Source of the DNA: Psammoneis japonica
Lineage: Eukaryota
Assembly (NCBI GenBank): GCA_008632985.1
Contig: QPGO01000125.1
Span: forward strand, 124,001 to 188,000
Direction: 5' to 3'
Length of the DNA stretch: 64,000 nucleotides
Numbering within the stretch: position 1 is the stretch's first letter; each line of letters opens with the position of its first letter. Below the pieces are notes generated by a model. The model worked only from the letters and a program-made list of their open reading frames with translations, was not told the origin of the DNA and did not search any database. The position numbers were made by a program, and so were the translations under genes. Shown one piece after another: positions 1,800 through 59,850 of this stretch.

Positions 1800-2539
1800 G
1801 TCTCTGCGGTCTGCGGTAATCTACAATCTTTGCTTCCATAAAGTGAAACAGTGACATACCACAGTAAGTAGCAAGGACGACATCTAACTAATAGGCAGAA
1901 AAGATGATGACAGCAGTGTGTTCTTGATGCATAACGGACTTTCTGCTACACAGAGCACAGGGCAGTCGAAAGTCGAAGCTGGGTGTTGGGTGTCAACATT
2001 TTTTTCGATTTTTCATTCTTCATATTCGTCAATGAATAATCTTCTTCTTTGCCGTTTCCTCCTGTCCGGCAAATGCAACCCTGCGTTATCGTGCTTCCCT
2101 GGGTCAAGCAGAAGATGCGGCCATTGAATTTAGATTATTCTCCCTACTCTCTAGAGCTCGGTGGAGAGAGACTCTACTCTCTAGAGTAGCCGCGGTAGCC
2201 CTAGAGTAGTACCGTAGAGCAAGGGTGACTCACCGATGTACAGGAGGCTTCGAGGTTAATGTTGCCTACAGTACATACCTGCACGGCGGAACGATTATTA
2301 TAGCTAACGGCCCCGACTTGAGAACGATAAAACGAATGATCCTTTCAGAAATATGTCAAGTCTGATAGATAGCTCTAAAGTAACACTACTGTCATTCAGG
2401 ATTCAGAGAGGCGATCTCCTCATTCACACCATACCAGGTACTACAAGACTACTCTAGTTCGACTATCCCTCCCAACTACACCCTACCGTAGATCAACTCA
2501 CACAACCCACAACTACCCAAACACTTGCCTGACCAATCA

Positions 2540-4211
<1,672 letters not shown>

Positions 4212-6375: not shown

Positions 6376-7820
6376 TTTTTTAAAATAGAATATTAAGAGA
6401 GCCTATGTAGAGCGGAAGGGAACAGCAGAGGGAGGCACGGAGGTAGCTGTAGTGACGGTAGAGTAGAAGGGCCGAAGGACACAGGAGGAAGGGCGTTGAG
6501 AGGAAGGTATAGGTGAGGAGGGAGAAGGGAGGGAGGATGTGAATCGGAGGATATGCGTAGAAAGGTGAAGAACAACGTTGTAGCCAAGAGTTTGAGTGGC
6601 CCACTGGGACGGGGAGGCTGTACGGTACTGTAGGTGCTCCCAAAGCGATCGGCGGACAGGCGACACCATGCGAAGTCAGCGGACGGAAGGATTGCAGACG
6701 GAGACGACAAAGCATAGAGGAAGGCGGAGCAGGAGGCAGCAGAGTGACGGAAGTCAGAGGAAGAGGACCAGGGAGGCTTGGGTTGAGAGCAGATGGAAGA
6801 AGACGTAGGACCAAAGAGCAAGTGGTGGGCAAAGCAGCGGAGACTGCCAAGGTGATTGACAGTGAAGGGGAGCAGGAAGATGCCATCGTTGTCAAGCAAA
6901 GAGAAACAACAAGGGAGCCATCAGCAGAGGAAGCCGAGGAACTTCAATCTCGCGCTCGAGTGGTGTGCCTCAGTTAAAATGGGAGAAGAGGGAGCAGGCA
7001 GACCTGGAGGAGGGCGAGAAGAAGCTTGAGGGACGGCAACGTCCACTGCAATGCAATGATGACAGGAAGGAGCGGAAAGGGAGGTGGGAGGGGGAATTGA
7101 AGTGCCGACATCGGCGGGACGGAGGAGTGGGCGGGCGGGGAGCAGGTTGGCAGGCTCGAGATGAACGTCATCAGGGGAGCGACAGAGCTCTGCAAGAGGC
7201 CCCAGGGTTTGGGCCAGGATGAAAACAGCATCTCGGAGGCCATTGGAAAGTTTGGACTTGTGAGCATGGCAACAAGAAAAGGCATGGTCGCCGCAAGCAT
7301 CAAGGATTGCATGGCCACAGGGACAGGGAGTGTTGACAAGGGACGGAGGGAGGACGGGGAGGCAAAGCTTGCAAAGAGCGGCAATGGCGTAGGCATCCGA
7401 AGAGAGACGGGAGCTTGGGAAGCAACGGGAGAAGGAATGAAGAGGAAGGCTTGTGAGCGGAGATGGCAATGAAGGCAGCGAAGATTGCACATCGCAGGAG
7501 GAGTCAGCAAGGATGGAAGCAACTGCTTGCTGTTGACATTCATGGTAGGTGCGGCGAGCCAGGCCAGGAAGAGTGGCCGATTTAACCAGGGCAGCCAAGG
7601 AAGAAGAGGAAAGGGCAGAGGCAGAGGCAAGAGCGGGGGCACAACGACGGAAAAGCACACAGAGACGCAGAGAAGAGCGAGGGTTGGACCAGGGAGATAG
7701 GGAGAGCCGAAAGCAGCGCGGAAGGGAAACAGAAGCACCGGAGGGCAGGCTGACACCGTGCGCAGCAAAGCGGAATGAGCGAAGGAGCGACACCAAAAAG
7801 GAAGGAATGGCGGCATCAGC
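6376..7820 (-). mobile_element. 5'-truncated non-LTR retrotransposon fragment, CRE-like (CCHC knuckle + restriction-like endonuclease), degenerate
   Basis: CPCGHAILDACGDHAFSC zinc knuckle followed by RPADV...IAVDV...LLPFTVNHLG, the PD-(D/E)xK RLE layout of CRE/R2-type elements. Frameshift near 6900-6925. Short A6 tail (T-run 6376-6381). No RT core and no TSD found. Confidence 0.7.
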
Positions 7821-8004
7821 TGTTTCGTCTCGCTCGTTGTTAGGTTGCATGCACAGAGCACCCGGATGCGTCCGTTGAGCGCACACGCCATGGGATGACC
7901 GCGCAGAGTGCCGAGTGCAAGTAAGCGCATTTGCGTCCAAGCACTCGATCGCTCCACGTTGCCATCGAAAAGCCAGTTCGGAGTCGTTGTTATTATCCCG
8001 ATAC

Positions 8005-10827: not shown

Positions 10828-12665
10828 TCACCAATCTACCTCATCTTCACTTACTTCGGAAACACTTAGCAGTTCCAGATCCTTTTGCGCCAAAGCCTCG
10901 CTATGGTTAAACCATCCCTCGAACTCATGCTCGTACGGAGCTCGTTCAAAACGCGGCTCGAGTGCACAGAAGCACTTTTCTTCTTCTTCCTCCTTTTCCC
11001 TACGCAGCATATGCGGGCTTGTTGACGAAAGTCCTCGAGTGACGGCGTCAGCTGCATCATTGAAGACTCGAGTTCTTTGATTGCAGTCCGTGTTCCGCTT
11101 GGAGCATTTCCCTCTCACCCTGAATTTCAGCCTTGTTTTCTTCTTTCTCTTCACAACTGTTCCTTCCAATCCGCGGTGCTCATCGTATACTTCATCTACT
11201 TTCACCTGCACGTCTTTGACTGTTCGACGGACGGGATCACAAAGTAAGTTGGCCAACCCGTTGTAAGAAAGCCCAAACGCCCTGCCTACCAGTTTTAAGC
11301 TATCCTTGTCCACGTTTTCCATGTTTTCATACTCCACAAAGGCGTACGTTGTGAAGTCCAAGCTTTGGACATTTCTAGGGCAGTCCACTTCCTGAATCTC
11401 AACAACAGCGGTTGCATCATGACCCTCAACCATTTCCTCCGAATCTACCTTGGCCGCTTTTACGGAAGCCTTTTCATCGACCAGCCCTCCACCAGCTTTT
11501 GCTTCTTCTCGCATATCTTCTCCTGTATTCTCCTTGAGCTTCATTCGAGTCTCAGCAGTTTTTATGGCAGCTTTTCTTGCCTCGTCTTCTGCTTCTTTTC
11601 GTTCCTTCTCGGCTTTACTCACGATCTTGTCAGATCGTTTCTGCTGATCCTTCAGTTTCTCTCTCGCCTTTAGGACTTCTTTCTGTGCCTTCTCCAGTTC
11701 ACTCGCCCTTTTTTTACGAATCTCTTTGCTTTCTTTCTCAGCCTTTTCTAACAACTTTGCAAGATCCTTCTTCTGCTTTGCCGAGTCCGCTTCTTCAAGC
11801 GCTTTCTTCGCGTCCGCTTCCTTTTCTTCGGCTTCTCTCACTGCTTTAGATGTTCGACTTTCGACTTCTTCAAGTTTTTTGCTTGCATTCTCTACACCTC
11901 TTTCTACCTCTCTCCACTTTTTCTGAGCTGCCTCTATCTCTTTTTGTGCCTCTGCATCAACCTCCTTTGCTTTTTGGGCCTCTTCTTCGTATTCTTCCGC
12001 CATCTTCATGCTGTCCTTCGCCTCGTCGAGGGAGACACTTTTAATTTCTTTGCGGAAAAATGACAAGAACTCCTTCTCGGTTGGAGCACGATCATTTGAC
12101 TCCTTTGGACAGTCGCAAATGCGATCGGCATCGCCGTCGGTGACTGGCAATTTGTACGTAACCGGCTCGACGAGTAGCCGCGAATTCTGAGGCATGTCCT
12201 TTTTCCAGTGATGGAATGCTAGAGTATCAGCATTACACCTACCGCTGCATTGACCATGAAGTTGATAAAGAATTATTCTTCGAAAGTCAACCTCTCCATC
12301 TACAACCCTCTCGAAGCTTCCCATTGCACGAGCTCGGACGGAATGGACCTTGCGGTAGAGTTTGTCGCAGGGACGTCCCTCCACGGCCTTCTCGGGATCG
12401 TTGAGGCTGATATGTTTCTAATACATGTCGTGCTAGTGCATAGAGCTCAACTTCATCTGGATCCTTCTCCATGTCCTTGCCGTCGTGTTCGATCAGAATC
12501 GACGAGTCAGAACGTTTTGTCCCTCTTGCACACGCGCGCTTCTTTCTCACGTCGTAGGTCACGTGCCTGGCCATTACGCCTTCCAAGCCGTGAATCATGT
12601 CCTTGAACGGTCAATGCGACACCTAAAAGAGATGTCGCGAGCGCTAGGTATAACAAGTATCTCAT
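10828..12665 (-). CDS. Secreted Cys-rich duplicated-domain protein with central K/E/A coiled coil (two apparent frameshifts at ~12510 and ~12410)
   Basis: Signal peptide MRYLLYLALATSLLGVALTVQG. Homology to 4826-5935 continues across frames (VCKRDKTF/DSSILIEHD...ETY/SLNDPEKAVEGRPCDK). Motifs CDCPKESNDRAPTEKEF and CFCA...RAPYEHEF. Confidence 0.7.
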
Positions 12666-12798
12666 GTCAAGACTCGATTTCATTGACGGCAAAGTGTGAA
12701 GTTCTGGAGAGACAATCACTGCTCGCTCTCACACAAAAAGGACGAGGACATGGTGGGGCTTATGAGTACATGGCATCTTGCAGTCATTATGTCCTAAT

Positions 12799-12973
12799 TG
12801 CAAGATCTAGCTTGAGATGACTTGATAAAAGTTGTGGGAGAACCGAGGAGAGACCCCATCATCGCTGATGCAGCCCAAACCTAACGGTTTCCCGTACATC
12901 TAATACGTTAGTTAACACACATATGTCAGAGAGGGCACACTCGGTCATAGAGTACATGTGCCTATCTCATTCA
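12799..12973 (-). repeat. 3' LTR (175 bp)
   Basis: Aligns without gaps to 18221-18395 with 13 mismatches; TG/CA termini. Confidence 0.96.
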
Positions 12974-12985
12974 CTCTTCCCCTCC
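12974..12985 (-). other. Polypurine tract (GGAGGGGAAGAG) of the LTR element
   Basis: ctcttcccctcc on + strand, directly abutting the 3' LTR. Confidence 0.85.
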
Positions 12986-12999
12986 ATGGTGCAAGGAAC

Positions 13000-15900
13000 A
13001 CGCGCACCATTGGAACCACTCGACTAAAATTCAAAACCCACTGCACACGGAGAAGGGAACCCAGACGTTGGGAAGAAACCCTCAACTCCGACACGGCACC
13101 ACACGGCGAATGTTGATTCGCTCGACAACGTGCGGTGCTCGCAGCACCGAAACAGTCCCGTTGGCATGGACTTGCACAATTCGAAACGGACCACAAGCTC
13201 GTTCTTCCAACTTCGAAGGATCCACCGACTTGATTGATGCATCTTGACCAACTAGACAATCGCAGGAATGTCACTTCGCATTCTGTCATCACAGGTTCTC
13301 GTCAATCAACACTTGTCGGTTGGCTTGTGTCGTTGCGAGATCGGAGACAACAGGCAGGTCCAAAATCACATCACGTTGAAACACCAGAGCTCCACTTGAA
13401 ACACCCGCAGACCTTGAGTGGGAGCATCGCAAAGCATGAGAGGCTGCAGCAAGGGCATCGTCCACAATCTGCTCGGCCTGTTGAACATTTAAAGGTGGGT
13501 TGGCAACAACCACAGCACGCAAGACATCAGCTGCCGTCTGGTGCATTCGTTCACAAATGGAGTTGGCTGCAGGATTTCGAGACGTCGTCGGAGCATCAGC
13601 AATGCCCGCTTGATTCAGTGACATTTGGAATTCCCAACCAATGAATTCTCCACCATTGTCATGGATGCATCAATTCGGTCTGGGACAACGAGCCAACCAA
13701 AGGTTGCGAAACTTGTTGGTCACATGCTGAGAAGTTTTGTTGTCAATGCGCACGAGTTCAGTCAATCCAGTGACAGCATCAATGCAAGTGAGAGCGCTGA
13801 ATTCAATCTCTTGATCTTGAATCGGGATCTTCCACGGTCCAATGAGATCAGCTGCCACTTCCATCCACGGAGCTAAAGGCACTTGACGTTGAGGCAACTC
13901 TCCACATCCAGGGCCTGGTTGTTTAAATCGTTGACACGCATCGCAGACAAATTCATTGCAACGTCGCCGCAATGCAGGATGACACATGTGAGTCCGAATG
14001 CTTTCATGCAATTGCACGACTCCACAATGGCCCAATGCACGATGACACCATGCAATGACATCCGGCAACAACGCAGTGGGGGTGCAAATCTTCCAGGCTC
14101 CAGGCGGATCATTCAACTGCAAACGATGACAAATCAGGGGACGATGGTTCACAATCTTGACCACAAACTGCTGCGGATTTTGTTGTCTTTGCTGGTTCAG
14201 TTGGAGGTCTTCGAACTGGAGCTGTTGGATCCTCAATGTCTCAGTGGGATTCGGCATCTCGTCCAGTGTCGGATGATTCAAAAAGCATTCAAACAATTCA
14301 GGCTCGTCGAGCAGAGAGGAAAAGACGGCGTGAGACTCATCAGAAGGAGCAACAGGAGCACGGCAACACTTGAACCTGCAAGCGCCTAACTCCAAATCTT
14401 CCTCGGCCTTGGCCTTGGAATCCAACTTTTCAAAATGAACAATTTTTCCTTTGCGTTTGCTGCTTGGCCCAAGGCTCCTCCCCTCCGAAGGCGGATCCAT
14501 GCGTGGCAGATGAGAAAAACAATCGGCGAGCACGTCATCCTTGCCTTCGACATGCTTAAACGCAGGCACAAAATCTTTGAGGAACAGGCACCAATGAAGG
14601 ACGCGCTGTGCATTCAAAGTGCGAAAGGTGAGATTTTTGTGATCAGTGTGAACAGTGATGTCAGCACCGAGCAGCATCAAGCGAAATTCTCTGAAGCACA
14701 TGACGACGGCCAGTGGTTCCTTTTCCATTGTCGAACAGTTTCGTTGAGCCGTCAAAAGCTTTTTAGACCAACGCGCCACCGGTTTGCCATCTTGAATGAC
14801 AGCGGCGCCCATCTGGCAGTCTGATGCATCGGTGCAAACATGGAATGGCAGGTTGTGGTCAGGGCAGGCCATCAATGCTTCCACCGTGATTGCTGCTTTC
14901 ATTTCATCGAACACTTTCTGACATGATTCCGTCCATTGGAACTGACTTTTGCCTGTCAATTCAGTCAGAGGTGCAAGCAGGTGAGAACGGCGAGGCCACA
15001 TGTTGCGACAACAAGTTGCTGCACCGAGAAACGATCTGAGTTGAGCAGTGTTCTGTGGAGGTTGCATTCGTGGAATCACTTCGACCTTTTTCTTCCACGG
15101 TTTAACACCAGTCGGAGCAAGCCAATGCCCCAAGAAATCGGTTTCTTGAACACACCACTCGCATTTCAATGGATTGGCTTTCAAACCATTCTCTTCGAGA
15201 CGATGTGGCACCTTGTCAAGACGAGAGAGATGGCAATCAAAGTCAGCATCAAACGCTCCAATGTCATCAACATAAGTTTCGACATCCAAACCATGAAGAA
15301 TCTTTTCAACAATGGACTGAGCAACATCTGGAGCTGGCTTCAATCCCACAGCCATGCGACAGCACTGAAACTTTCCGCAGGGAGTTGCAATCGTGGCGAG
15401 CTCTTTGCTTTCATCGTCCAATTCCAAATTGCAGTAGAACACAGTGAGATCCAATTTCGTGAAGAATTTGTAGCCCGCTCTTCGTTGCAGCACATCTTGA
15501 ATGACCGGCAGAGGACAACCCATCGCACTCGACCGTCCTTCTTCGGAGTGACAAAAGTGCCAGCTGCCCATTCCGCAGGTCCACATGGTCGCAGCACGCC
15601 GAGATTCACCAAGTGCTTCAATTCCTTTTTGAATGCTTCTTCATTAACTCGAGCAACAGGAAACGGTTTTGAGTGACAAGGAACAGCGTTTTCATCCACT
15701 TCAAGGTGCACCTTTTCATGAGGACAGTGGCCCAACGTTCCGTCAAACAAGGTCGAATGCTTTTCCAACACCGCTGGCAGTTTCTTCTTTTGTTCTTCCG
15801 TGAGATGGTCCAGATTCCGAACTGCCTCCGCCGGATCCATTGCTTCATGCTTGGCATCGAGCACACAGGTGTCGCATCCGTCGTCGCATCCGTGGTCTGA

Positions 15901-16605
15901 CTCGTCTTCATGATCTTCATCAAATTCATCCATTCGGTCTAAAGCAACACACCAATTGCAGGACTTGGACCAATGACGAGGCTCCTTCATTGGAATTACA
16001 CGGTCTAACCAACGCAGTGTTCTTGTGTCACAGTTCAAATTGAGGCCAATCTTGTCCAAGAAATCTCGACCCAAAATGACATCATGCGCACACGGAGCAT
16101 CGAACACGTGAGCCACACAGCCGTCAATCCTCTTGGTCTTGTCGAATTCCGGCAACGCAATGTCGCTCAGGGCCACCCAACGACCCGACTGGAAAGGACC
16201 TGCAATGGTTTGAAAAGCTTGGACTCCATGTTCGTCAATGGATGGCACGGCTCCTCGAGGTAAAACTTGAGACGAGATCACAGTGTGAGAACCACCTGAG
16301 TCAAACAAGACACGCATCACACGATTCGACTCATGCCGTTGGATCAATTTTGTAACAAGCAGTGCAGATGGGACCAACGCAGCATGCGAGACTTGCGATT
16401 TCATTTTGGGGAGAGGAATGTGACACTCAAACGCATCTTGATCGAACACGTCCCCCTCTTCATTCATGTAATTTTCTGCAGTGTTTTCAAATTCAACAGG
16501 TGACAATTCGTCAGGATTTTCAAAACAGTCAAAAACAAAACATTCATCATTTCTTTCAGGTAAAACACAATCATTTTCATCAACAAATGCTTCTCTCACA
16601 GGCAA
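13000..16605 (-). pseudogene. pol: Gypsy pol (protease, RT, RNase H, integrase), disrupted
   Basis: VLFDSGGSHT protease. PKKDGRVRWV, FTKLDL and YVDD for RT, with a short deletion after RVRWV. TDASD and TDHKNL for RNase H. HHCC zinc finger, DLIGPW, DNGGEF and NSICERMHQ for integrase. Many Tyr->Cys/His changes and several frame breaks. Confidence 0.93.
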
Positions 16606-16710
16606 TTGGGAGCATTCAGCTCCGGAGCATTCAGCTCCTTCTTCTCAGAACTGCCGAGGAAACTGCCGATCTGGCTGAAACCTCGCCACACCTCCACAAC
16701 GTGGAGGGCC

Positions 16711-17900
16711 TCATCCGATCATGTCGAAATGGTGCACGTCACCACGAGGAGCTTCTCGAGCCTGGTTGTCATTGTTCACATTGTCTGCTTGAGCAGCATG
16801 TCCGTCAGCCTGACCTTGGCCTCCACGGTTGTTGTTTTCATTGCAATGATGCTGACCACCACCTTGGTTGCCATTGTTGTTTTGGTGTCCATTGTTGTCA
16901 TTGTTGTCATGACAGGTGCCACGACCTCCTTGGTTCTGGTCACCACGACCACCAAAGCGTCCACCACCTCCACGGCCTTGTCCACGGCCTCCTTGGAAAT
17001 GACCTCCGCCTCGACCTCCACCGCCACGGCCTCCACCTCGACCGCCACGGTTTTGAGGCCCACGACAGTTGGGATTGTTTGGATTGTCATGACACTGGCC
17101 CCACGCATGCCTTCCATGGTGCCACGGGACCGGACACGGGTCATTCGCCTTTGGTTGGCCCTTGCCATCCTTCTTGTCTCGGTCGCCCTTTTTGTCACTG
17201 GAGTTCCCTCCATTGCCATTGTTGGACTTGCGTTTCTTGTTGTCCTGACCATCGGCGAATGCCTTCTCATTGCTCATGCAGGCTTGGATGTCCACCATCG
17301 AGTTCGTAACAAGGTTCTTGCCCGCACGAATGCAAGACTGCTGCCAGGTCAAAGGGAAGGTGCAGAAGATGACACTTTTCTGCTCCTGCTCTGTAAGTTC
17401 AGGAACGGTTCCAGGCAAACGGTTGGTGTGACGAAACAACGTTTCCGTGTGATCAATGTGTGTTTCCGATTCCGCTGAACAAGGCTTTTTGCAAGTGGGC
17501 AAATGCATCTTCATTGTGTCGCGAGCTGTTGGTTTCACGCAGCGCAAATGATGAGCTGAGATGGCCTGATTAAATCGAGCCACCATCCATTGATTCTGTT
17601 GGACACCCGTGGTGACATTTTGCCATTTCGCCTCTGCAGCACCTTGAAGGCGATCCTTGAAAGCATCAAATAATTCTGGTCCGGTGTCACAGTCGAGCTG
17701 TCTTGCCACCTTCCGGAGCCTGTCCTCCACGTGCAACAATGACTCAATTCCATGCTCTCCTGTAAAAATGGGACACATTTTCGAAAGTTTAGCACCATCA
17801 TCAAAGGTTTGAGCGAGCTTCACTTCCTGCAATTCTGAATCCATGAATTTGGTCTTATGCTCAATGAACGCTTTCTCCAAGGTTTCTTGACACATGGCGA
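16711..17900 (-). pseudogene. gag: Gypsy gag-like ORF
   Basis: Upstream of pol in the same orientation. CPVPWHHGRHAWGQC knuckle-like motif followed by RGG-rich and Asn/Gly-rich tail. Start uncertain. Confidence 0.75.
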
Positions 17901-18220
17901 TGAACAATTTCAGCGACCAAACAATCAACAATCCACAAGATGAACGAAACAAAGTGCTCCCAATTGATCCACACAACGAGAACAATCAACAACCAAACAA
18001 GAACAAATTCAATGGCAGCAACACGAGCTTCGAGTTCAAACAAGCGCTGCTCTGAATCGCCAATTTCACGAGCACAACTGCGCGGCGATTCTGATCGACT
18101 TCAAATGAAATTTTCTGCACGCGCTCGCAAATGGATTTTCTCTCTTCTCGATGACACTCTTCGCGTTGTCATGAAACTGACAATGCAATGAACAAGCCAC
18201 AACAACGACTGCAATTACAG

Positions 18221-18395
18221 TGCAAGATCCAGCTTGAGATGACTTGACAAAAGTTGTGGGAGAACCGAGGAGAGACCCCATCATCGCTGATGCAGCCCAA
18301 ACCCAACGGTTTCCCGCATGTCCAATGCGTTAGTTAACATGCATGTGTCAGAGAGGGCACACTCGGTCATAGAGCACATGTGCCCATCTCATTCA
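18221..18395 (-). repeat. 5' LTR (175 bp)
   Basis: Second copy of the LTR, followed on + strand by TSD CTAAT. Confidence 0.96.
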
Positions 18396-19552
18396 CTAAT
18401 TCCTTGAGACATTGTCATTTCATGATGTGGTGTGACATTCATGATTTTACTTGAGGGGGGTCATCCCCGCGTTTATCCTAAAATTACCGTTGCATTTGAA
18501 CAAGGTTTTTCACAGTGTTTATTTTTGAACACAAGAATTGTTCATAGTCACACCCGATCGCGCACGAAAACGAGAACCATCAGCACCGCGACCGAAGCAC
18601 GACGATGATGACAATCATCGACATTTCTCAAAAACGTAGTTTGCCGTCTACCAACTTTTCATGTGCACACAATCTTTGTTACATGACAAACACAAAATAA
18701 ATAAGAGTTGGTAGACGGACCACCTCCGTCACAGACTTATGGCTTGTTGTTTTCACCACGGTGAAGCACGGTGAAATTCAGGAAAAATCATGCAAAACAC
18801 GAGCTATTCGGCCGAATTCGAGCTAAAAAAAGTAGCAACCGACCACCCTTAAAATTTATAATATGAAACCCATAGTCTACTCGTGAATACCGGTATAAAT
18901 GCAGTACCGGTACATACAATGCGACGTGCGTATGTACTTACTTGTACTGAATGTACAGTACAGTAGCTCTGTGACATTCCGATTAAACTATTTTTAAGCC
19001 CTCAATACAGACATTCTCCACCCAATCACATCAGCCTCGCGTCGGAACTCGAAAGGGGAAAGCTCCCTCTAAATCTAGGTAACTCTACTATCTAGTCGTC
19101 GCTATCTCTAGCTAGAAAGTAAGAGCGGACTAGGTGCCGTAGACTACAAGTTGCCCGAGGCCACAATCTGCTACTGTACAGAGACAATCCTTGGGTTCCT
19201 TTCTACTGTACCGTAAAATATTTACTCGTTGGATAGAGGTTGGTCGACAATACGAGAGGGCATCCAACCCGGCCTGGTCCTATGACTAGATCGGGAGGCC
19301 GTATCCTCTCTAGGCCCTCAAAAGCCTAGCTACTCTAGTGTGGGTGGGGACTTTAAGCGGCCAGAAAAACACTCCACGAAAAGGATTAAGTGTCACTCTC
19401 TAGGAAACAAGCCGTTGAACTTTCATTAGATCTCTCCGGCGGTTACTCAAGCAGAAGGAAAGCGACGCAAACGACTCTTTGCTCCTTTCCTCAAAATGGT
19501 GGTTAAACTAGTTACTGCCCCTCCTCCTCTAGATTTCAGCATCAGTGTGCTT

Positions 19553-25036: not shown

Positions 25037-25417
25037 GAAAACAGGCATCAAAAGAAGGAGGAAGGAGGAGGTCAATTAATCACAACAGAGTGATTTATGG
25101 TAGCTCCATTTTTTGAAAAGTGGTAATTCCAGCAATAGAGAGTCACAAGCAAAGTTTCCTTTGTAACATTTATTGTTTCTACGTCGCTTCTTCAAGAGCA
25201 AAAAGGTGATCGATCATCATCGAACAGGAGAATGACAGAAACGAACGAAAACAGGCATCAGAAAGAAGGGGAGGAGGTCTAATCCCAGAGTGATTTACGG
25301 TAGCTCCATTTCTTGAAAAGTTGTAATTCTAGTAATAGAGAGTCACAAGTAAAGTTTCCTATGTATCGTTTCATCTTTCTACGTCGCTTCTTCAAGAGCA
25401 AAAAGGTGATCGATCAT
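25037..25417. repeat. Imperfect tandem duplication (~175-bp units at 25037-25217 and 25247-25417)
   Basis: Both copies run gaaaacaggcatca...cagagtgattta...tttctacgtcgcttcttcaagagcaaaaaggtgatcgatcat. Confidence 0.9.
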
Positions 25418-47327: not shown

Positions 47328-47921
47328 GATGGATGATGGATTGGAAGTGAACAGCGATGCGATGCACCTTTTCTTTTCTCTTTTTGTGAGCGGCTCTGTG
47401 GCGTTGGGAAAAGAGGAGGCGAACTGTTATCCTATTCTACGTAGGAACCAGTACATATCTGAGTATGTAGCTGCCTGTAACCTCTCATAATCGGGTAATA
47501 ACTTATGTCTATCATTGAATAAGATATTTGATGTTCTAGTGACGTTCTTGTTGAAGTTGAGTTTATTCAATATATATGTCTGAAGCAATTAATTCAAAAT
47601 TTGGAACTCGTTTAACGGCAAAACATTCTGAATAACGGTAAATAACTGTAGATATCGATAGTCGATCGACGGAATCACTTTCAACGCGTAGGCAGCATAT
47701 GTGATTTCGTATGTAGTCTCATACCAGGAATGCAGTAGCCAACTGATGTTCTTCTGATGTTCTTGTTGAATTTGAGTTTATGCAATGCTCAGATATGAAG
47801 CAAATGAATAAAAATTTGGGCGGCAAAAAAGTTATTCGCGCAAACGTCAAAATAACCGCATGTTTGAGTTTTATTCCATTGGCAGAGCTCCAGACGACAT
47901 CAATGACCACGAACTAGCTAG

Positions 47922-50900
47922 ACTCTGAACATCGAACCGACAGCCAACAATCAAGTTTCGTTTTGTCGGTGCTTCCAGCGCCAGGAGCACTGTTTGTTGC
48001 TGGCACTCAGCCATGTGTCACACCGTGCAAGTGTGGCACATTGCAAAACTGTCAGGAGGGAGATGAGCCAAGCATTTGAAAGACGTGTGTTCGTCAGAAA
48101 AACGCGAATGCTGAGATTGAAGGACATGCTGCATTTGTCCTTTTTCCACCACTGTGCACTTTCTTGCGCAAGAAAATCTGGCTGATTTTCTCCCATCAAT
48201 TTTTTGTTGCTTCATTTTTCAGATCTGGTTGATGCTTTGAAGTGTCAGCCAGCGCCGCTGTTCTTCTTGATTGCTTGGAGCATCTGTGCAAAAAAAAAAA
48301 AGGTTTTGGTCGGAAGAAGCTGATCATGGCTGCTTTTGCTGCACTTTTGAACTTCTTTTTTTTGTTTCTCTTCCATCAAGCCTGGTTGTTTTTGACAACA
48401 ACGGAAGTCGTTCAAAAATGTTGCAAAAGCCGCCACAATTGACACTTTGTGTTGTGTGAGGGAAAAAAGACAAAATCATGTGGAAATGCACAAAAAAGCC
48501 ATGTGAGAGGGTGGTTGGAGCTGCCAACTTTTTGGGAACTCAACTGAAATTTCATCTGATCAAAGGTGCTTTGACTTGCATGGTGAAGAGCGACACCTTT
48601 GACCAGACAACATCTCAGTTGATTTCCAAGAAATTGACATTCCAGCAGGGATGGGCAGAGAGACTGGCAGCAGTTGTTTCTGGCGGGCACTCTTTCACAC
48701 AATTTCTGCACAATGACTCTGAGAGCCACAATGACTCCCGTCATTCCCACCTTTTTCACAGCAGAAAGAGCTCATGCCGGAAAAGAGCAGCACTCTCTAA
48801 CTCCATTTTTCACAACAAAAATTGCAAAAACTGAGACTTCACACAACAAGTGCACTTGATGTGTGGCTGCAGTTGCTTCAAAAAGATGCAGCTGATTTGT
48901 GGTGTGTCAGTTTTGCATTGGGGCTGAAACAGCAGTGCCAAAGTTTGATGAGTGCAGAGCAACTGAGCTGTTTGAAATGCAGAAGCAGGGGCAACAACAG
49001 GGTGTTGGCAATGTGTGAGAAGAGAAAAAAAAGGTGTGTCAAAAACACAGTGAGTTGAAAAGCTGGTCAGTCAGGAGCCCCCCTCAAGAAGCATCAAAAA
49101 CACCATTGCACCAGTCAAAAAAGCCCACTTGCTTGCTGCTGCATTGCGGCCTTCACAGCTCTGACAGCCTGCCCCTTGTTTTTCAGGCCACAGCTCCTGT
49201 GGCATGGGGCCATTTTTGAGGTGTGCGCAATTTGTGATGTGAGAGACATGAAAAAAATCTTCTTTGATTTGGAGCTCAACTGCCCCATGTGGAGGGCTGA
49301 CTCAGCACCAAACGCAATGATGCACAGAAAATTTTGCAATTTGTCCAATGTTTTGCACAGCATGAGAACACACCTTGAGCCAAATTTTGCTTTGCTCAAA
49401 CTGGAGGGGACCCCTTTCTCTTTCTGAAGATGACAATGCATGCACTGTGCTCTCATGCACCAGCACTCTTGTGACTCTCTTCTTGATCATCCCAAGATCA
49501 AATTGCTGGGCCCTGTGCACATGCACTCACACACTGCATCACTTGTCCTTGTTCCTGGCAAATCACAAAAGGCCCAGGCATTCTGCACAAAACTGTGTCA
49601 AGAGCTGGCACTCTCCTGCATCACCCCAGCTGCAGCGAGCTCTGCCTCTTGCACCAAGCTCAGTGCCAAATGTGCACAAAAAGGCAGGTGGTTGCAAAGC
49701 TTGTTGTTGACTGTGGCTGTGGGACAATTTTTGAGTTGTCACACCATTTTTCTCTGTGCAACATTCAGTTGGCTGCATTGTGCACTGCTCACTTGATGCT
49801 CAAAAAGTGCGAGCTGGTCTGTCCACAACAAAAGGGCTGTCACTCCAAGCTCATTTGAGGGGTCTTTGTGAAACCACATGATGACACATGGCTTGGTGCA
49901 CAACAAAGTTTTTGCACACTTGGCACAACTTTGGGTGGCAACCAAATGTTTGACCCTGCTTGTGATGTGGGTTCTTCATTCACAGCTGGAAGCTGCACAA
50001 TGACCACACCAGCACATCTGCTCATCAGAGAAGAAGCGCAAGTGTGTGGACATGCACAAAATGGCTGTGCTCATTTCTGCCCCATGCTTTGCACAGCTGT
50101 TGCATGGAAAGCTTGCATTGCAACATGTTTGCTGGTGTTTTCCAGCTGTTGGCATGGCCCATGTTGCATGCTCTCCCACAACATGGGCTGCAGAGCTCCT
50201 GACAGGTGCAATCTGCCACAGATTTGTGTTTCATTGCACCATCTTGTGGGTGCAGTGTGCCTCTGTTGTTTTCATGGACAACTCTTGTGGGGCACGGACA
50301 ACAGTCAGCTCCACATTCAGCAACTCTTTGTTCTTGTTTGACAAGTGCCAAATGCTCTGCAATGCACCATTCTGCTTGCGTTTTTTCAAAATGGCCCAGC
50401 TGGGGGTGACACCAGCCAGCTGTCTGCTTCTGCAGCAATGTTGTGCTGAGAGAGACTGTTTCATCTTGGTTGCAACCAGCTGTTTGGCTGACATTTCTGG
50501 CCCTGCAGAAAAAAAGCTTCTGCAGAGGTCAAGGCAGCTTCTGGCATTTCCTCAACTTTTGGGCCACACTTGGTTTCCATGGGGTGGTTGAGAGGGCCAA
50601 GACAACTCAGCATGCGCCCACCACAACCAAGCTGTGTGATGATGTCCCCCCCAGCATGCCACAACTTGTTGGACCCCTGTTCCTTGCATGCTGTTGTTGT
50701 GTGTGCAAACACATCATGGTGTGCTTGGTGCGGAAGACTTCACATGCAAGGTCATCAGTGCACACCAGCACACACCAGCCAAGGATGATGGACCTGAATC
50801 ATTTGGACAGCCCAGCTGAGCACAAAACCAAGCTTTCTCCAACAAAAAGCTTCTGGCCAACTGTCTTGCAACAAAGCTTCTCCAAGTTGACGCGTGAGCC

Positions 50901-53640
50901 ACACCTTGGCACATGCCCTTCAAATGGCTGTCAAGATCCAGGTGCACAAGCAAAACTTTCACAGTGTTTTTGATGCAGCATCTTTGTTGCACACCTGCCC
51001 CCCTGCCCAGAAGCCTCACCTGAAATGTCCAAATGGCACAACCAAACATCTCACATGAAGAATCAACCATTCCCACAAATGTGAGTGAACAGCTTTTTTC
51101 CCCTTTTGTTTGTTGATGATCTGCTCTGCTGCTTTTTGACCTTTTCAGATGACAGCCAAATGCCTTGTTTTGTGTCCCAACAACCAAGGTGCTTTGGCCA
51201 AGTTTGGCAAGCACCAGCTTGACAGTTTCTTGCAGTGTGTTGGTGCCAGCCACAACATCATGTTGTTTCTCAAGATGACTTTCAAAGGACCCCTTTGTTG
51301 CCCTCAGCGAGTCATCCAGACCACCAGATGCAATGTTTCTCTTGAAATGTGGCTGGCATGTTGCGCTGGCCAGCTTTGGCAAACATTGCAACTCATGCTT
51401 TTCCTCAGAAGAAAAATCAAGGAGTCCAAAGTTTCCAGTGGCGCGCCATGCCAAACCAAACAAGTTGAGGAAAGCTGCCCACCAGATGTTCCTGAGCTTC
51501 AGCGGCAGATCAAACCCCAGCCCTTTTTCAGACAGTGACAAATGCCAGTGCTGCCCACTCCAATCTGGCATTTGCTGCTGCAGCCACTTGCAATCAAAAG
51601 CTCCTTGAGCTTGTTCAGCTCCTCTGATGTTTTGCTTTTCTCTCTTGGTGGCTTCCATGTCTTGAGCACATGTTCTTGACCACTGCTTTGACAACGACAG
51701 TGCTCAAATCTTGGTGGTCATTCTTTTCTTTTCATCTGCAATTGACAATGTGTTGCTCTTGTTTTTTTTGCCATTTGCTTCAAATTGTTGTGCTCTTTGG
51801 TCAAGTGCCTGCAACTGGCACAGTGCAAAACATGCCAGATCTGAGTTTTTCTCTCTTCTCATGAGTGATCTCAGACACTCCTGTCTGTTTTTTCCATCTC
51901 TGCACATGTGCAGAATCTTCTTTTCTTTGGTGCATTTTTGAGGTCCAGCTCTTTGTTGGTGGCTTTGAAATGAGCCCTCAAATTCCTTGTGAGCACCGCA
52001 CAGTGCCCCACCAAGCATTTGGCACTCTGCTCTCAAGCAAATCTGCTGACACATTGTCCAGCCCCTCCTTCAGCTCCTGGAGGAAAATCCCCTGGGCAGC
52101 TGCTCAACTCAGCAGCCCTTGTGATGCAGAGTCTCAGGCTCTCACACAATTGTCTCTGCGTCTTTTCATGGAGTGCCCCAAGTGTCACTTTTGCAGCACA
52201 GCACTGTGCTCCTTGGGAAAACTCTTTTCATCACCACATCTGCACTCTCTCCGTGCATCCAATGTTGGTCTTTGCAGCAAGCTCTGTCACTTTGTTGTTG
52301 AGTGTTGTCAGAGCATTCCTGCTCTCTGACATCCTCCAGATGAATGCAGGTGCTTTTCCAGCCCAGCAATGATGTTTTGTTCTTGTGGATGACATGCTCC
52401 TTTAAGCTGTGCAGTGGGAAGAGCAGCTGCTCTTTGTGCTCTGCACTCCAGCACACTGGGGCACAGCATGGTTCAGCTTGCCCACTGGGCTGTCTCTGTG
52501 CACTTGCAAGTTGCTCATCTTGTGCATCTGATGCTTGCCCTTTGCTTGCAGCTCCTGCATTTCAACAAGCATTGCTGAACAGCATTGTTGGCTTCAGCAG
52601 GTTTCTCTGCACACACTTGCACCAGGTGCAGTGCCGCTGTTCCCTGCATGCCAAATTTGGCAACAAACAACCATTGACAAAAATTGCAAGACCATTTTCT
52701 GAGTGCAAAACATTTGGTCACATGAGTTGCACAATCTGCTTGCACATGAGCGTGGGCTTCTCTCATCCACCTGTGAACAGCGGCAAAAGGGTTCTTCGCT
52801 TCAGGCTTGTTGCAAGACTTGGTGAGTGCAGCGTGGCACGCAGCTTGGGTGCAAAGTCTTTTTCCTGCATTTGAGGGACCTTGGGGAGCAGTTGAGTGTG
52901 CAGCCCTTGTGATGTGGGTTTGCTCATGGCTGGGCACAATGGCACAAATGTGCATTTGCTCAGTTGAGTGAGTGTGGGTCGTGTGCACATGGCACATGCT
53001 GCTCATGCTGCACACACACTTTCCACTGCAAAAAGCACTTGTGTCAACACAAAATGCTTGTTGCTGTTGTGAGGAGGACAGGAGTGCATGCTGCTGATCA
53101 TTGAACTCTTTGCCACCACAGACAATGGCTGCAGGATTGTTTTGCAGCTGGCTTGCCAACGTGCTCCTGGTCTGTCTGCAAGCTGTCCCAAAGATCGCCA
53201 TGTGTCGAAAGATGATTTTGTTGCTGTGGTGGCTGCACTCAACTGGGTTTGATCTTGCTCAATCAAAAATGATTTGAGCTGCACCAAGAAAACTCATGAT
53301 GCGTGTGATGGTCATGGAGTCTGCCCAGGCTTTGTCCAAACCATCAACCAGGTTCATGTGGTGCTGGGCGGAACATCCCATTGTCTGAATGTTCTTTGCT
53401 CTTGCCCGCTGTTGACAACCAACATGTCTCAAGCACAGGTGTCAGTGGTTCATTTGTTGAGGTTCTTGCACCTGTCAGAAGCTGAGCATTCTTTTGCTGG
53501 CAAACTTTGACTGGACAATGGCTGGCTCATGGTCACAAAAGGAGCACAAAAAAGTTTCACCTGCAGTGTGGAGAATTGGTGGTGGCAACAAGGATCTGAT
53601 TCATTCAAGACTCACAAAATTGTGAGGCTGCAGGGCTGAT
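47922..53640. mobile_element. Degenerate repeat/transposon-derived block, almost free of TpA and poor in CpG; family not identifiable
   Basis: Only two TpA found by eye in ~5.7 kb (~48798, ~52403). TG/CA-rich, no recognisable protein motifs, no clear termini. TE origin is inferred from its compositional similarity to the mutated LTR element. Confidence 0.55.
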
Positions 53641-54087
53641 TTACCCTCTGGGTTGCTGTTTTAGTGGGCATGAGCAGTGGTTGTGACAAGTTTCATCTGC
53701 AAAACATGATGGTTTGAATGTTTTTGAGCTTTTAAAGGACAACCGTCTCGGAAATGCATGGATTTGAAATGGGCAGCTGCATTTCGGTTGGAGGGGAGGA
53801 GCCCCCCTCTGCTCGATTTGCCTGGTTGTTTCACTTTCGGTCAAAAGAGATGCTATTTTTTGCTTTTTGAATTTCACCACATAGTCGATGATATGGAACA
53901 GTCGTCCTCTGAGCGAGAAAACAATTAGCACCAATCAGATCCGTGTTGTAACATCTCTCATCATGATGTACCGTAGTTCATGGATGTAATGCAAGTCAAG
54001 CGGGACTTGTGAGTCACTTGCTGATTGCTGCAATCGGTGGTCTGCTCTGTCTTGTTTGTTTACAGTTATTCAATTTCTAACGCTAAC

Positions 54088-55726: not shown

Positions 55727-57034
55727 TTACGGATCAGCTTCCACCGCCTCTTCTCCCCCCGCTTCATTGCTTTCGATCGCATCAAATGTCAGAAAGGTTG
55801 CTCTACAGCATGGGCAGTCATCATGACGCTGCAACCATTCCGTGATGCAATCCTTGTGAAAGGAGTGCCTACATTTGGAGACTTGTGACCACGAGCGTTC
55901 GTCGCCTGTTCGAAACGGTTCGAGGCAAATTTGACACAACTCACGGTCGTCGTCATCGTCAATGTTACTATACACGTCAGTGGCAGTCTCGTCTTCCGTG
56001 TCAGTTTCTTCTTGTCCCGTGGTTGACGTGTTGAGTGCAACGGGCTCCTTGGATGATGGGGCGGTGGATGAAGAGTTCAACTTACTGGACTGCTCAGACT
56101 CAGATGCTATTGACAATGAGTCACCTGATGCAACCTTTTCATTATCCGTGTTTGACTCTGATGCTTCTGACGTTTCGGTTAGTGTACTTTGCGTATCGAT
56201 GATGGCTTTAGGTGGGGCCTGCTCCACCGCATCCTGATTTGTTTCCCCGAGGTCTTCTTCGTCCACTTTCTGTTGACAAATAGTGAATGCAGAAAACAAG
56301 ATGAATCTAAACTTCTTACTCATGCAATTCGATAAGGTAAAATGAGCAAAGGCAAAGCTATTGTGTCTTACCTTGGTCTTTAGGCAAGCCTCGATCGCCG
56401 CACTTCTGTCTTCCTCTGTCCGAGCAAAAGGCGACCCAAGACGAGAAGTTGCTCCGCCGCCCTCGCCTACAGAGTAAGAGCGACTCCGAGGCAGGAACTT
56501 TGCGCACAACAGAGCCGTGATGCATGGCAGACAACACATGGTGGCAAATACCGCAATCGCAGCCGCCGATTCCTTACTCATCTTGACACTCGCATCGCTG
56601 GTGTGATACGGACCTGCCGTGGTACCGCTTCCCCACTTTAGACAAACGCCATTGCAATTGACTGCTGCACAACGGCGATTGGTAATGACATTGGCGCAGT
56701 CCACAACAAAGACTTGTGTGTCTCTACAGTACGAGCAAGACGTGCACTCGTTGCCGCGATAGCTAACAGAGCAGGTACAATCCGCTAACCACGCAGAGTC
56801 AAGAGGACAATAGGTTGTCATATCCAACCGATTCGAGTCCAGAGAAGCTCCTATACGGCATACCCGCTCGTTGTTTTCTACCGAACACCGAAAATTGTTG
56901 TGATGGCGAAGCATGGAATTGGGAGATCCATGATTGACCATTTCTACTTCATAATTAGGATCTTCCAGAACCCGACTGGCGTTGACAGGAGGTGCGAAGA
57001 GGCATAAGATTGAAAGAAGTGTTCTGATCGACAT
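55727..57034 (-). CDS. Single-pass membrane RING-H2 E3 ligase with Cys-rich extracellular domain (in-frame intron ~56270-56371 likely)
   Basis: Signal peptide MSIRTLLSILCLFAPPVNA, 10-Cys ectodomain, TM helix AIAVFATMCCLPCITALLC, C-terminal CQICLEPF...CRHSFHKDCITEWL...CPCCR. Confidence 0.85.
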   Translation of the reverse strand: MSIRTLLSILCLFAPPVNASRVLEDPNYEVEMVNHGSPNSMLRHHNNFRCSVENNERVCRIGASLDSNRLDMTTYCPLDSAWLADCTCSVSYRGNECTSCSYCRDTQVFVVDCANVITNRRCAAVNCNGVCLKWGSGTTAGPYHTSDASVKMSKESAAAIAVFATMCCLPCITALLCAKFLPRSRSYSVGEGGGATSRLGSPFARTEEDRSAAIEACLKTKVRHNSFAFAHFTLSNCMSKKFRFILFSAFTICQQKVDEEDLGETNQDAVEQAPPKAIIDTQSTLTETSEASESNTDNEKVASGDSLSIASESEQSSKLNSSSTAPSSKEPVALNTSTTGQEETDTEDETATDVYSNIDDDDDRELCQICLEPFRTGDERSWSQVSKCRHSFHKDCITEWLQRHDDCPCCRATFLTFDAIESNEAGGEEAVEADP

Positions 57035-57297
57035 AGTGCCAGTACCTATCAACAAACTGCAAATAGCCTGTTCTCCTGCATATATTCCACTCTGTAACGT
57101 CGTTGAACAAGCACAGCGAGGAAGAGAACACAAACGCAGTCGTGTGATGTGGTTGGACGGAAGTGCTGAGTGCTCGAGCAGAGTGAACTTCCAAAGCAAA
57201 TTTGTCAATTTGTCGGATTCCGGTAAAGATTTCATGCTCGTGGCTGGTTAACGACAAGCCCATAGCCCAATCTCTTTGTCTGACTTCGAGCCAAAGT

Positions 57298-57415
57298 AAG
57301 CTAAATGGTTAGTGTAAATCGTTAAGTGTCATTTCCACTTCGACACAAAGAAAGCTAAATGGTTAGTGTAAATCGTTAAGTGTCATTTCCACTTCCATAC
57401 AAAGACAGCTAAATG
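57298..57415. repeat. Tandem repeat, 54-bp period, ~2.2 copies
   Basis: aagctaaatggttagtgtaaatcgttaagtgtcatttccacttc at 57298 and 57352; partial third copy at ~57407. Confidence 0.92.
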
Positions 57416-57839: not shown

Positions 57840-59850
57840 GAGACTTAAAACAGCAAATGGGTTGACAATCAAGCAGTGATCGGGTTTGCCAACATTTCCA
57901 AAAATGTGACAACAAAAGTTGCATCACTCAACAACCAACAACATCTCAAGAGATGGAAACAAGAAAAGTGACTCCTCTTTGCACTTGAATTAAAAGAGAC
58001 AACAATGCACAACAAACATTTGAGAAGGACAAGAAGCTCTTGAATGCATGGAACCAGAAGAGAGTCAATGAATCGCTCTTGTTTTGAACCTCTTGACCTG
58101 TTCTGTCCATGATGGTGGTTGGCTGAAAGGTTGGTGGTGGTTTTTTTGTGTGACTTGCAGCTTGAGGCATGTTGATGCATGAACACATGGCCCATGTGTG
58201 GTGTCACCTTTGGAAAGTGCCACTTGTGGAGCTTGAGTGGACAACTCTCTGTGCTCAAGCTTTGTCCGCCAAATGCTCCATCAAAGTCCAGATGATGCTG
58301 CCACATCCCACCCGACCATTGACACAAAACAGTTCTTGCAAAATGTTGTTGCCCATTTCCCTCTTCCTCTGCAGAGCAGCCCTCTTGGTGACAGTGCTGC
58401 CCACATGCCAGAATGTGCTCAAGAATGCTTTCCATTTTGCCAGCAAAGATGCCCAACGCGGGGCTGTGTGGGCTCGAATCTCTCTCAAGACAAGCTGACA
58501 TTTGTGCCTGGCACTGGCGGCAATGCTCAGCCCTCCTTCCTGTTTGACTTCCCAGGAGTGTGCCCAGATCTCCTGCGTGCTGAGTGGCTCAACCACAAGA
58601 GTCACTGTCTTTGTCAGTTTTGTCAGCAGGATGTGCCAAGGCTGCTCTGGCCATGTGTGCGCAAGGACAGCTGCGACAGTGCTTTCTGCTGTCAGCAAAG
58701 AGTGTGAGCTGGCTGGACTGCCCAACCCCACACTTCACAGCTCCTTGGCAGTCACTCCAAATCAAGTGCCAACTTGGGGTCAACCGCACCTGGCTGGTTG
58801 CAATGCAAAGACAGCTGTGGCAGCACTTTGTGACAACAAAGAGAGTGCGAGCTGGCTGGGCTCCCAACCCCACACTTCACAGCCCCTCAGCACTGGATCC
58901 CAATCAAATGCCAACTTGGGGCCAATGGCTGTGAAGCCATCATTGCAAATCCCTGTGCCTGCCCCCTCACACAGCTTTGCACAGGGTCAACATTTGTGGC
59001 CTTTGCAAGATGGGCCCTGGCTGGCTGCTGGCTCTTCAGCCACACGGCTTGCACAACAAGCCACCACAACACAGAGCACTGTGGGGTGAGTGCAGCACAG
59101 CCCAAACAAGCACACCATGCTGAGATCACCCAGAGTTGGCTGCTGTCCTGGGGCTCCATTCAAAGCTGGGCTGGGCTGCTTGGCTCCTTGGTGTGCAGCA
59201 CATGCTTGGCATCACATTCTTGTTGCCAAGCAGCCACATGGCATGTGCCCACCATTTGTGCCTGCAACAGTGACCCCAGCCACAAAGAAGCCAACAAAAA
59301 GTTGAACCTGGTTTTGTGGTTGAAGAGTGAAGAAACTGTGAGTGAAGTTTGGTTCAAGATTTGTTGGCAATGCCAAGTGGGCAACCAAAGAGAGGCGCCA
59401 AAAATGGCCATTCTCGCTCATTTCTCAAGAGGAGCTTGCGCTCATGATGCAGGGTCTGAAGCAAGCACCAGCCAAGACAACAGTTTTTTCTCTCTGCCCC
59501 ACTTAAAACACAGCCTTTGAGTCAATGTGGTGCTCCTTCAACAACTCACGCACACTGGGAAGAGCAGCTGGAGCCAGGGCAGCTGGCCTGGCAGGGCTTG
59601 GCTGACACCCAAGCTGGGCTGCTCAGCCTGGTGGCACACACTCAGTGCCACATTGTCACCCTCCTGCAACTGCAATGTGCCCCACTCTTTGCACCTGCAG
59701 CAACCACCCTGGATCAAAAGAAGCCAGTGCAACTCTGGCCATGGTTGCATGGTCAATTGTGTGTGTGTGTTCAACGGTTGATTCCCCTCTTTTTTTCTCT
59801 TTTCCTTTAACCGGCCACGAACATGAAAAAATTGCCGAAACTTCCCTTGA
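57840..59850. mobile_element. Second degenerate TpA-depleted, CpG-poor repeat-like block with an internal ~85-bp duplication
   Basis: The only TpAs seen are four TTAA sites (~57846, 57991, 59504, 59807). Internal repeat 58699-58783 vs 58842-58925. Confidence 0.5.

Follow-up and report, generated by a model that had tools for sequence, protein, structure and literature searches.

Loss of most TpA dinucleotides from a Ty3/Gypsy-type LTR retrotransposon of the diatom Psammoneis japonica, in part after its integration

We analysed a window of 64,000 nucleotides from the diatom Psammoneis japonica (assembly GCA_008632985.1, contig QPGO01000125.1, positions 124,001 to 188,000 of the forward strand; all positions below are those of the window). 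A sequence-only reading of this window had flagged an open reading frame (ORF) in which conserved tyrosine codons of a Ty3/Gypsy-type pol read as cysteine or histidine. We found that the flagged region is the pol of a complete 5.6-kb Ty3/Gypsy-type long terminal repeat (LTR) retrotransposon on the minus strand (12799-18395), from which the dinucleotide TpA has been almost entirely lost. The change is specific to TpA and runs in one direction, to TpG or CpA, and it is likely that a host process made this A:T to G:C change across the integrated element, partly in place. In kind, the event matches the TpA-restricted hypermutation of integrated nucleocytoplasmic large DNA virus (NCLDV) and virophage DNA which Mettrop et al. 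describe in the text of their preprint for the chlorarachniophyte Bigelowiella natans (bioRxiv 10.64898/2026.01.13.699255).

The same five bases flank the outer ends of both LTRs, and since this target-site duplication is intact the two LTRs belong to one insertion. Pfam matches on the minus strand gave the pol domain order protease, reverse transcriptase (RT), RNase H and integrase, and tblastn of protein relatives was colinear with one frameshift, at which about 15 residues present in relatives are absent between the two pol frames (15515-15516). It should be noted that the integrase core had no Pfam rve match in the element's own piece, its homology being visible only through relatives, and that no tRNA primer-binding site was recognised by eye, no formal search having been made. 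The best of 538 protein relatives had 65% identity (BLASTP) and the named ones are from the diatoms Nitzschia inconspicua and Mayamaea pseudoterrestris (43-45% identity). The parts of the element are as follows.

12794 to 12798, no strand: target-site duplication CTAAT on the low side, TpA intact.
12799 to 12973, minus strand: 3' LTR of 175 bp with TG..CA ends, 12 TpA kept and 2 of 14 inferred ancestral TpA converted.
12974 to 12985, minus strand: polypurine tract adjoining the 3' LTR, GGAGGGGAAGAG on the minus strand, read from the sequence.
13085 to 15514, minus strand: RT, RNase H and integrase frame with four TGA stops inside (Pfam and tblastn of relatives), which includes the flagged ORF.
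13271 to 13291, minus strand: three in-frame TGA at 13271-73, 13286-88 and 13289-91, where 42/43, 31/43 and 24/44 relatives respectively have Arg.
13670 to 13672, minus strand: in-frame TGA which terminates the flagged ORF, Arg in 28/48 relatives.
13670 to 15640, minus strand: flagged ORF of 656 amino acids (aa) with the Pfam domains RVT_1, RT_RNaseH_2, RT_RNaseH and Integrase_H2C2.
15515 to 15516, minus strand: frameshift point; residues 323-337 of relative P0001 are unmatched, the high-scoring segment pairs ending at 15517 and starting at 15514.
15517 to 16644, minus strand: aspartic protease and N-terminal RT frame (Pfam Asp_protease_2; tblastn).
16711 to 17985, minus strand: gag-like ORF of 424 aa with zero Tyr and without a Pfam match.
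18221 to 18395, minus strand: 5' LTR of 175 bp, with conversion at 11 of its 14 inferred ancestral TpA, the outermost converted site lying 11 bp from the outer end.
18396 to 18400, no strand: target-site duplication CTAAT on the high side, TpA intact.

The interior of the element contained 26 TpA in 5191 bases, an observed to expected ratio (o/e) of 0.08, vs 0.62 for the 49.9 kb of window sequence lying outside compositionally odd blocks, and both TG (o/e 1.39) and CA (o/e 1.56) were raised. Against the 221 TpA expected in the interior at host density, or 282 at the density of relatives, 28 remain, a loss of approximately 87-90%. In all 79 related metagenome loci the TpA o/e was 0.47-0.94, which shows that low TpA is not native to the family. 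The depletion was confined to the element: the outermost converted site of the 5' LTR is at 18385, 11 bp inside the element end, while the TpA at 18397 and those beyond it are intact, placing the edge between 18385 and 18397 with the adjoining host DNA at normal TpA. There is thus a sharp edge of conversion at the outer end of the 5' LTR, and at the other end of the element the 3' LTR was largely spared. We rejected gene conversion of the interior mediated by complementary DNA (cDNA) as an explanation, as it misfits conversion which reaches to 11 bp from the outer end of an LTR.

The clearest record of the direction and timing of the change came from the LTR pair. When coded as purines and pyrimidines the two LTRs were identical over 177 nt, and the 13 positions at which their letters differ, making up 11 sites, were all TA vs CA or TG (13/13). 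At nine of these sites the 3' LTR has TA and the 5' LTR has CA (7 sites) or TG (2 sites); at the other two one LTR has CA and the other has TG, which requires an ancestral TA. The remaining 147 LTR bases showed zero differences and all six CpG were unchanged. As LTRs are copies of one template at integration, these changes arose after integration; they involve TpA alone and appear to have far outpaced ordinary mutation. With 11 of 14 TpA changed in the 5' LTR against none of the 147 other LTR bases, the comparison would imply a large rate excess after insertion. APOBEC-like editing of reverse-transcription intermediates, which predicts that both LTRs are spared alike, was rejected, the observed losses being 11/14 in the 5' LTR and 2/14 in the 3' LTR.

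Three sequencing runs (X1 to X3) were drawn on; they represent one sample and are possibly the assembly's own data, so that they check for assembly error and are not an independent replication. Run X2 is cDNA-like, as pieces of 83-101 nt with CT..AC ends are missing from it in the gene neighbouring the element. No RNA run was listed as containing the region. In a contig of this run (11342-12930, no differing letters) the 3' LTR is contiguous with that gene, which encodes 529 aa. The 3' LTR may serve as promoter or 5' end of the neighbouring gene, and active chromatin or selection may have protected it from conversion. We also observed that this contig reaches 132 bp into the 3' LTR from the gene, which is coiled-coil-like and lies at 10828-12417 on the minus strand.

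We compared the proteins of the element with those of its relatives to determine how the loss is reflected in pol. The motifs quoted in the sequence-only reading (LMACPDH, KFQCCRM and others) were all located in the minus-strand ORF 13670-15640, and the Pfam alignment which it proposed recovered the RVT_1, RT_RNaseH_2, RT_RNaseH and Integrase_H2C2 domains, with rve remaining unmatched. When this ORF was aligned to 49 relatives, 19 columns had Tyr in at least 70% of sequences; in the ORF these hold Tyr (n = 3), Cys (TGT or TGC, n = 12), His (CAT, n = 3) and Arg (CGT, n = 1). Overall, Tyr makes up 0.46% of the flagged ORF vs 4.09% in relatives, and Cys 5.34% vs 2.32%. Across the whole pol (490 conserved columns) the element retains Tyr at 3 of 23 Tyr columns, compared with 407 of 467 columns for other residues (Fisher P = 2.4e-14), the Tyr replacements being Cys (n = 13), His (n = 5), Arg (n = 1) and Phe (n = 1). 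A single nucleotide step explains 64 of the 78 mismatched pol columns, and the inferred steps lay in TpA context for 24/24 A>G and 13/14 T>C. Apart from Y>C (n = 13) and Y>H (n = 5), the replacements included V>A (n = 4), L>P (n = 3) and L>S (n = 1) and, at T|A codon junctions, I>V (n = 3), M>V (n = 3), T>A (n = 3) and N>D (n = 2). Eight relatives from metagenome loci, passed through the same pipeline as negative controls, kept 17-23 of 20-24 Tyr, and their steps in TpA numbered only 0-1 (A>G) and 0-2 (T>C). The proposal that conserved Tyr codons of pol here read TGY or CAY was therefore borne out, as was the view that TpA had been lost and not originally absent: the 79 related loci are normal, relatives read Tyr at these columns, where Cys or His in them had been named as a possible refutation, and the LTRs differ only at TA vs CA or TG. 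The further suggestion that the CGT of PVARWS is a double hit on TAT held in part; Arg (CGT) does stand at a Tyr column, but the second step is not in TpA context. A variant genetic code was also rejected, as the neighbouring host ORFs carry 1.1-3.4% Tyr and the standard code holds.

Could selection instead have made the family TpA-poor, for instance through escape from a nuclease or sensor of UpA or TpA, with Cys and His as functional variants? Suppression of UpA and CpG is known background for RNA viruses and retroviruses, and the Tyr of the catalytic YVDD is one of the three that were kept. We nevertheless regard native avoidance as scarcely credible: all 79 related loci have normal TpA, other copies read TA at some of the sites (see below), the LTRs diverged after insertion only at TpA, and this copy carries a frameshift and four stops. 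Moreover, the survival of Tyr (3/23) matches the overall survival of TpA (approximately 10%), which gives no sign that the protein was under selection during conversion.

We next considered the sequence context of the surviving sites. Of the 30 TpA remaining in the interior and the 5' LTR (13026-18395), 26 are preceded by T or followed by A (TTAA 7, GTAA 7, CTAA 4, TTAG 3 and others), whereas 44% of relatives' TpA are so flanked (P = 1.5e-6). Conversely, the mutated A was followed by A in only 3 of 50 inferred events, although this count is inflated toward C or T by Tyr codons. Sites flanked as TTA or TAA thus resist conversion. The three TpA surviving in two other TpA-poor blocks of the window (described below) are CTAA, TTAA and TTAA.

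The events were not evenly divided between strands. Of the 50 inferred events, 33 are sense-strand A>G changes and 17 are antisense; TG outnumbers CA on the coding strand (556 vs 406) and is in excess in 12 of 14 bins of 400 nt. For comparison, (TG-CA)/(TG+CA) in coding orientation was -0.065 for pooled relatives and -0.19 to +0.08 for seven host ORFs. The sense strand was therefore favoured, roughly 2:1. Such a bias would be produced by A-to-I editing of the element's RNA by an ADAR-like or ADAT-like enzyme (U before A) followed by reverse transcription, leaving the interior TpA-poor at insertion, and this account would also accommodate an interior far more depleted than the 3' LTR as well as the frameshift and the four stops, as in a trans-mobilised dead template. 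RNA editing cannot, however, make the LTRs of one template differ, and the differences here are at 11 TpA sites only; a third of events are antisense, and the T before A was absolute (24/24), unlike the graded neighbour preference of ADAR. In B. natans, moreover, the text of the preprint places the signature de novo in integrated DNA which is single-copy and transcriptionally silent. We consider RNA editing unlikely as the source of the change.

The sequence-only reading had also held that the process disables elements by missense and does not create stop codons. For the TpA change itself this stands, since TA>TG or TA>CA cannot yield TAA or TAG and the change is missense-only by construction, but the copy also has four TGA stops and a frameshift, and TpA loss is therefore not the sole cause of its disabled state. 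All four in-frame stops are TGA, with Arg the commonest residue in relatives at each column. Of the inferred C>T or G>A steps, 9 of 11 were compatible with CpG, and the CpG o/e of the element was 0.83 vs 0.96 in host DNA. The stops fit CGA>TGA, that is, a weaker CpG>TpG component beside the loss of TpA. The copy is disabled by TpA missense changes, CpG-derived stops and one frameshift.

We examined whether the converted letters are present in reads. Contigs of DNA run X1 (word depth approximately 60 on the unique flanks) contained 0.65 of the sampled 31-mers of 12000-19500; as this region is only about one-fifth flank and has a converted site roughly every 20 bp, the converted words must be present in the reads. 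Comparison of 3580 related contigs with the element gave 620 places with transitions vs 75 with transversions. In a subset of 40 of the 716 differences, 13 were TA vs TG or CA, some copies having TA where this one has TG or CA, although it should be noted that this subset is biased toward one diverged gag contig. The summed word depth over the element was 1,900-3,700 vs approximately 60 on the flanks, which is not a copy number and shows that many related sequences exist. Run X2 covered the interior of the element only via one diverged gag contig. This contig, of 1148 nt, lies at 16922-17327 and 17775-18069 with 55 and 43 differing letters, and its loose end has several TpA; a less converted relative thus appears to be transcribed.

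These data bear on the idea that silenced repeats carry modified bases at TpA, miscalled by long reads and left uncorrected. Modified bases can give systematic miscalls in some long-read data. Such an artefact is nonetheless very improbable here, given the converted words in X1, the Illumina data from which the B. natans signature came according to the text of the preprint, and the occurrence of four Tyr-free RT families in unrelated public assemblies.

The latter were found among the 150 best cluster representatives from a library of 1.84 billion proteins. Four representatives (P0251, P0263, P0266 and P0386) have 0-0.46% Tyr, vs 1.97% for the next lowest and a median of 3.5%. All four are Gypsy-type RT and RNase H families with a mutual identity of 36-52%, and at conserved Tyr columns they have Cys or His in 17/19, 10/11, 8/13 and 9/13 cases respectively, whereas three ordinary representatives keep Tyr (16/17, 9/9 and 16/19). 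A fifth protein, P0092, is partly affected (4/11). These Tyr-free proteins may come from this host or from other organisms.

We compared the element to systems in which mobile or viral DNA is known to be mutated, the closest being that of B. natans. According to the text of the preprint, two integrated viral regions in mutation-accumulation lines of this alga mutate at approximately 1000 times the rate seen elsewhere in the genome; nearly all changes are A>G or T>C, and every one of these AT>GC changes is at TpA. The same text reports that coding sequences with low TpA are enriched for reverse-transcriptase and DDE domains, describes 124 clusters which are TpA-poor and rich in CA and TG, mostly without annotation, and puts forward an ADAT2-like deaminase, as a proposal only. 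Going by that text, the likeness to the present element lies in A>G and T>C only at TpA (here 13/13 in the LTRs, and 24/24 and 13/14 in pol), in the hitting of foreign integrated DNA and not of host DNA, in a depletion of TpA with a gain of CpA and TpG, and in the many affected blocks without annotation, as for two further blocks here. The differences are that the host here is a diatom (a stramenopile) and not a chlorarachniophyte (a rhizarian), and that the target is a multi-copy LTR retrotransposon. Compared with the preprint's text, conversion is also near-saturated here (approximately 90-100%), whereas TpA was reduced 1.8-fold in the NCLDV region there; the edge lying no more than 12 bp from the element end, the LTR asymmetry, the refractory TTA and TAA sites, the sense bias and the CpG loss were found only here; and mutation was measured in real time there but is inferred from sequence here. 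The words diatom, stramenopile, LTR and retrotransposon are absent from the text of the preprint (supplements not covered).

Repeat-induced point mutation (RIP) of ascomycete fungi is similar in being a dinucleotide-specific burst of transitions which is confined to a repeated mobile element, inactivates it and appears to run far above background, none of the 147 non-TpA LTR bases having changed here. RIP, however, changes C>T at CpA, making TpA and stops and raising AT, whereas here TpA was destroyed and GC is slightly up; C>T at CpA (or another CpN) producing an excess of TpA, the mark of RIP, was not found, and each of the four stops is a TGA at an Arg column. Repetition may or may not be the trigger here; the B. 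natans insert hit was single-copy, as given in the text of the preprint. Diatoms possess DNMT4 enzymes which are relatives of fungal RID and are without an assigned function (PMC9998398), the part of that source considered here containing nothing on hypermutation.

ADAR hyperediting and APOBEC3 resemble the present case in that host deaminases scramble retroelement sequence, and ADAR favours U before the edited A (cited in the text of 10.64898/2026.01.13.699255). These enzymes differ in acting on RNA or pre-integration cDNA, which gives one-strand clusters and leaves LTRs alike; in the element both strands were hit (33 sense and 17 antisense), T was absolute, and the LTRs diverged after insertion at 11 TpA sites. 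Finally, diatom transposons are CpG-methylated, as stated in the part of PMC9998398 considered here, and CpG decay through 5-methylcytosine resembles the weaker second component of the element and is nearly complete in the two further blocks (CpG o/e 0.14-0.17), but it cannot explain the loss of TpA, which is almost gone while the CpG o/e of the element is 0.83 vs 0.96.

In the reading which we favour, a host process changed TpA to TpG or CpA in the integrated element, at least partly after integration, removing about nine in ten TpA from the interior and most of those in the 5' LTR while the host DNA a few bases away was left untouched. The enzyme may deaminate adenine in DNA at TpA, the resulting hypoxanthine then pairing as G; sequence alone could not distinguish this from a thymine modification which mispairs with G. 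TpA is palindromic, and both of its adenines would be targets, that on the non-template strand more often, which would give the sense-strand bias. Silent chromatin or small RNAs might guide the conversion, which is a guess, and the 3' LTR may have escaped as the active promoter of the neighbouring gene. The damage to protein (Y>C/H, L>P/S, V>A, I/M>V, T>A, N>D) is, in this reading, a passive consequence of TpA conversion.

Several points weigh against this reading. The ancestral state of the interior rests on relatives which are only 43-63% identical in the alignment, and the interior may owe part of its loss to a template that was mutated before insertion. The 3' LTR lost only 2 of its 14 TpA and the promoter account of this is conjectural, while the 2:1 sense bias (33 vs 17 events; TG 556 vs CA 406) also fits some contribution at an RNA or cDNA stage. 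The read checks come from the one sample, possibly the assembly's own data.

Two further blocks of the window are poor in TpA.

47920 to 53641, no strand: second block, with 2 TpA over 5.7 kb, a CpG o/e of 0.17 and a TG/CA o/e of 1.84/1.90.
57992 to 59807, no strand: third block, with 1 TpA in 1.8 kb and CpG o/e 0.14.

In both blocks TG and CA are raised (o/e 1.8-2.0), AT is low (0.66-0.71), GC is high (1.3-1.4), and the edges in TpA density are sharp. There was no credible Pfam match in their 36 ORFs of at least 90 aa, and 12 six-frame read-throughs (X at stops) gave a single Pfam match, to ComK at 20.4 bits, below the cut-off. A repeat search in purine/pyrimidine coding found no LTR or terminal inverted repeat in the blocks, and tblastn with five Gypsy relatives matched the element only and not the blocks. 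The second block is probably the same process carried further, and we read both blocks as putative older or harder-hit targets of TpA conversion plus CpG decay. In the left 0.9 kb of the block at 47920-53641 the CpG spacing is near background though TpA is already gone.

Other features of the window were also recorded. The region 6976-7990 is purine-rich (GC 0.58) with a TpA o/e of 0.16 and a CA o/e of 1.49, and lies within long minus-strand ORFs without a Pfam match; it may represent a relic after partial conversion, or composition alone may account for it. A conserved host gene of MiaB type at 60262-62541 has named relatives which are all from diatoms (Seminavis, Cylindrotheca, Amphora, Nitzschia and Chaetoceros; 54-65% identity), in agreement with a diatom host. 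Two direct repeats of 132 nt, 91% alike and 200 bp apart, lie at 25086-25417, and at 57298-57395, upstream of a RING-finger ORF (55727-57247), are two 44-nt stretches, 54 nt apart, which are alike in purine/pyrimidine coding.

In our literature search (preprint supplements not covered) we did not find the TpA-only signature reported in a diatom, on an LTR retrotransposon or near saturation. The only earlier account of an A:T to G:C mutator which targets foreign DNA and acts at one dinucleotide is a preprint of 2026 on an alga of the rhizarian lineage; the diatom LTR case, as judged from its sequence, adds a second major lineage and a second target class, making a comparative search for the enzyme possible. 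Any mechanism must explain the post-integration timing, the edge no more than 12 bp from the element end, the resistance of TTA and TAA sites, the sense bias and the one spared LTR. There are also consequences for annotation, as converted copies keep long ORFs and will probably be taken for genes, and fully converted blocks escape domain-based repeat annotation.

A bolder possibility, which we offer tentatively and to which we give somewhat less than even prospects, is that one old dedicated defence is common to diatoms and chlorarachniophytes. It would mark integrated mobile or viral DNA and deaminate the adenine of double-stranded TpA, poorly at TTA and TAA, within chromatin borders that would spare a co-opted LTR promoter, and together with CpG decay it would convert all pyrimidine-purine steps into CA or TG until the inserts are unrecognisable, as in the second and third blocks. 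If this were true, unannotated blocks free of TA and CG would be a fossil record of past invasions, and the enzyme would be findable by comparing genomes with and without the signature.

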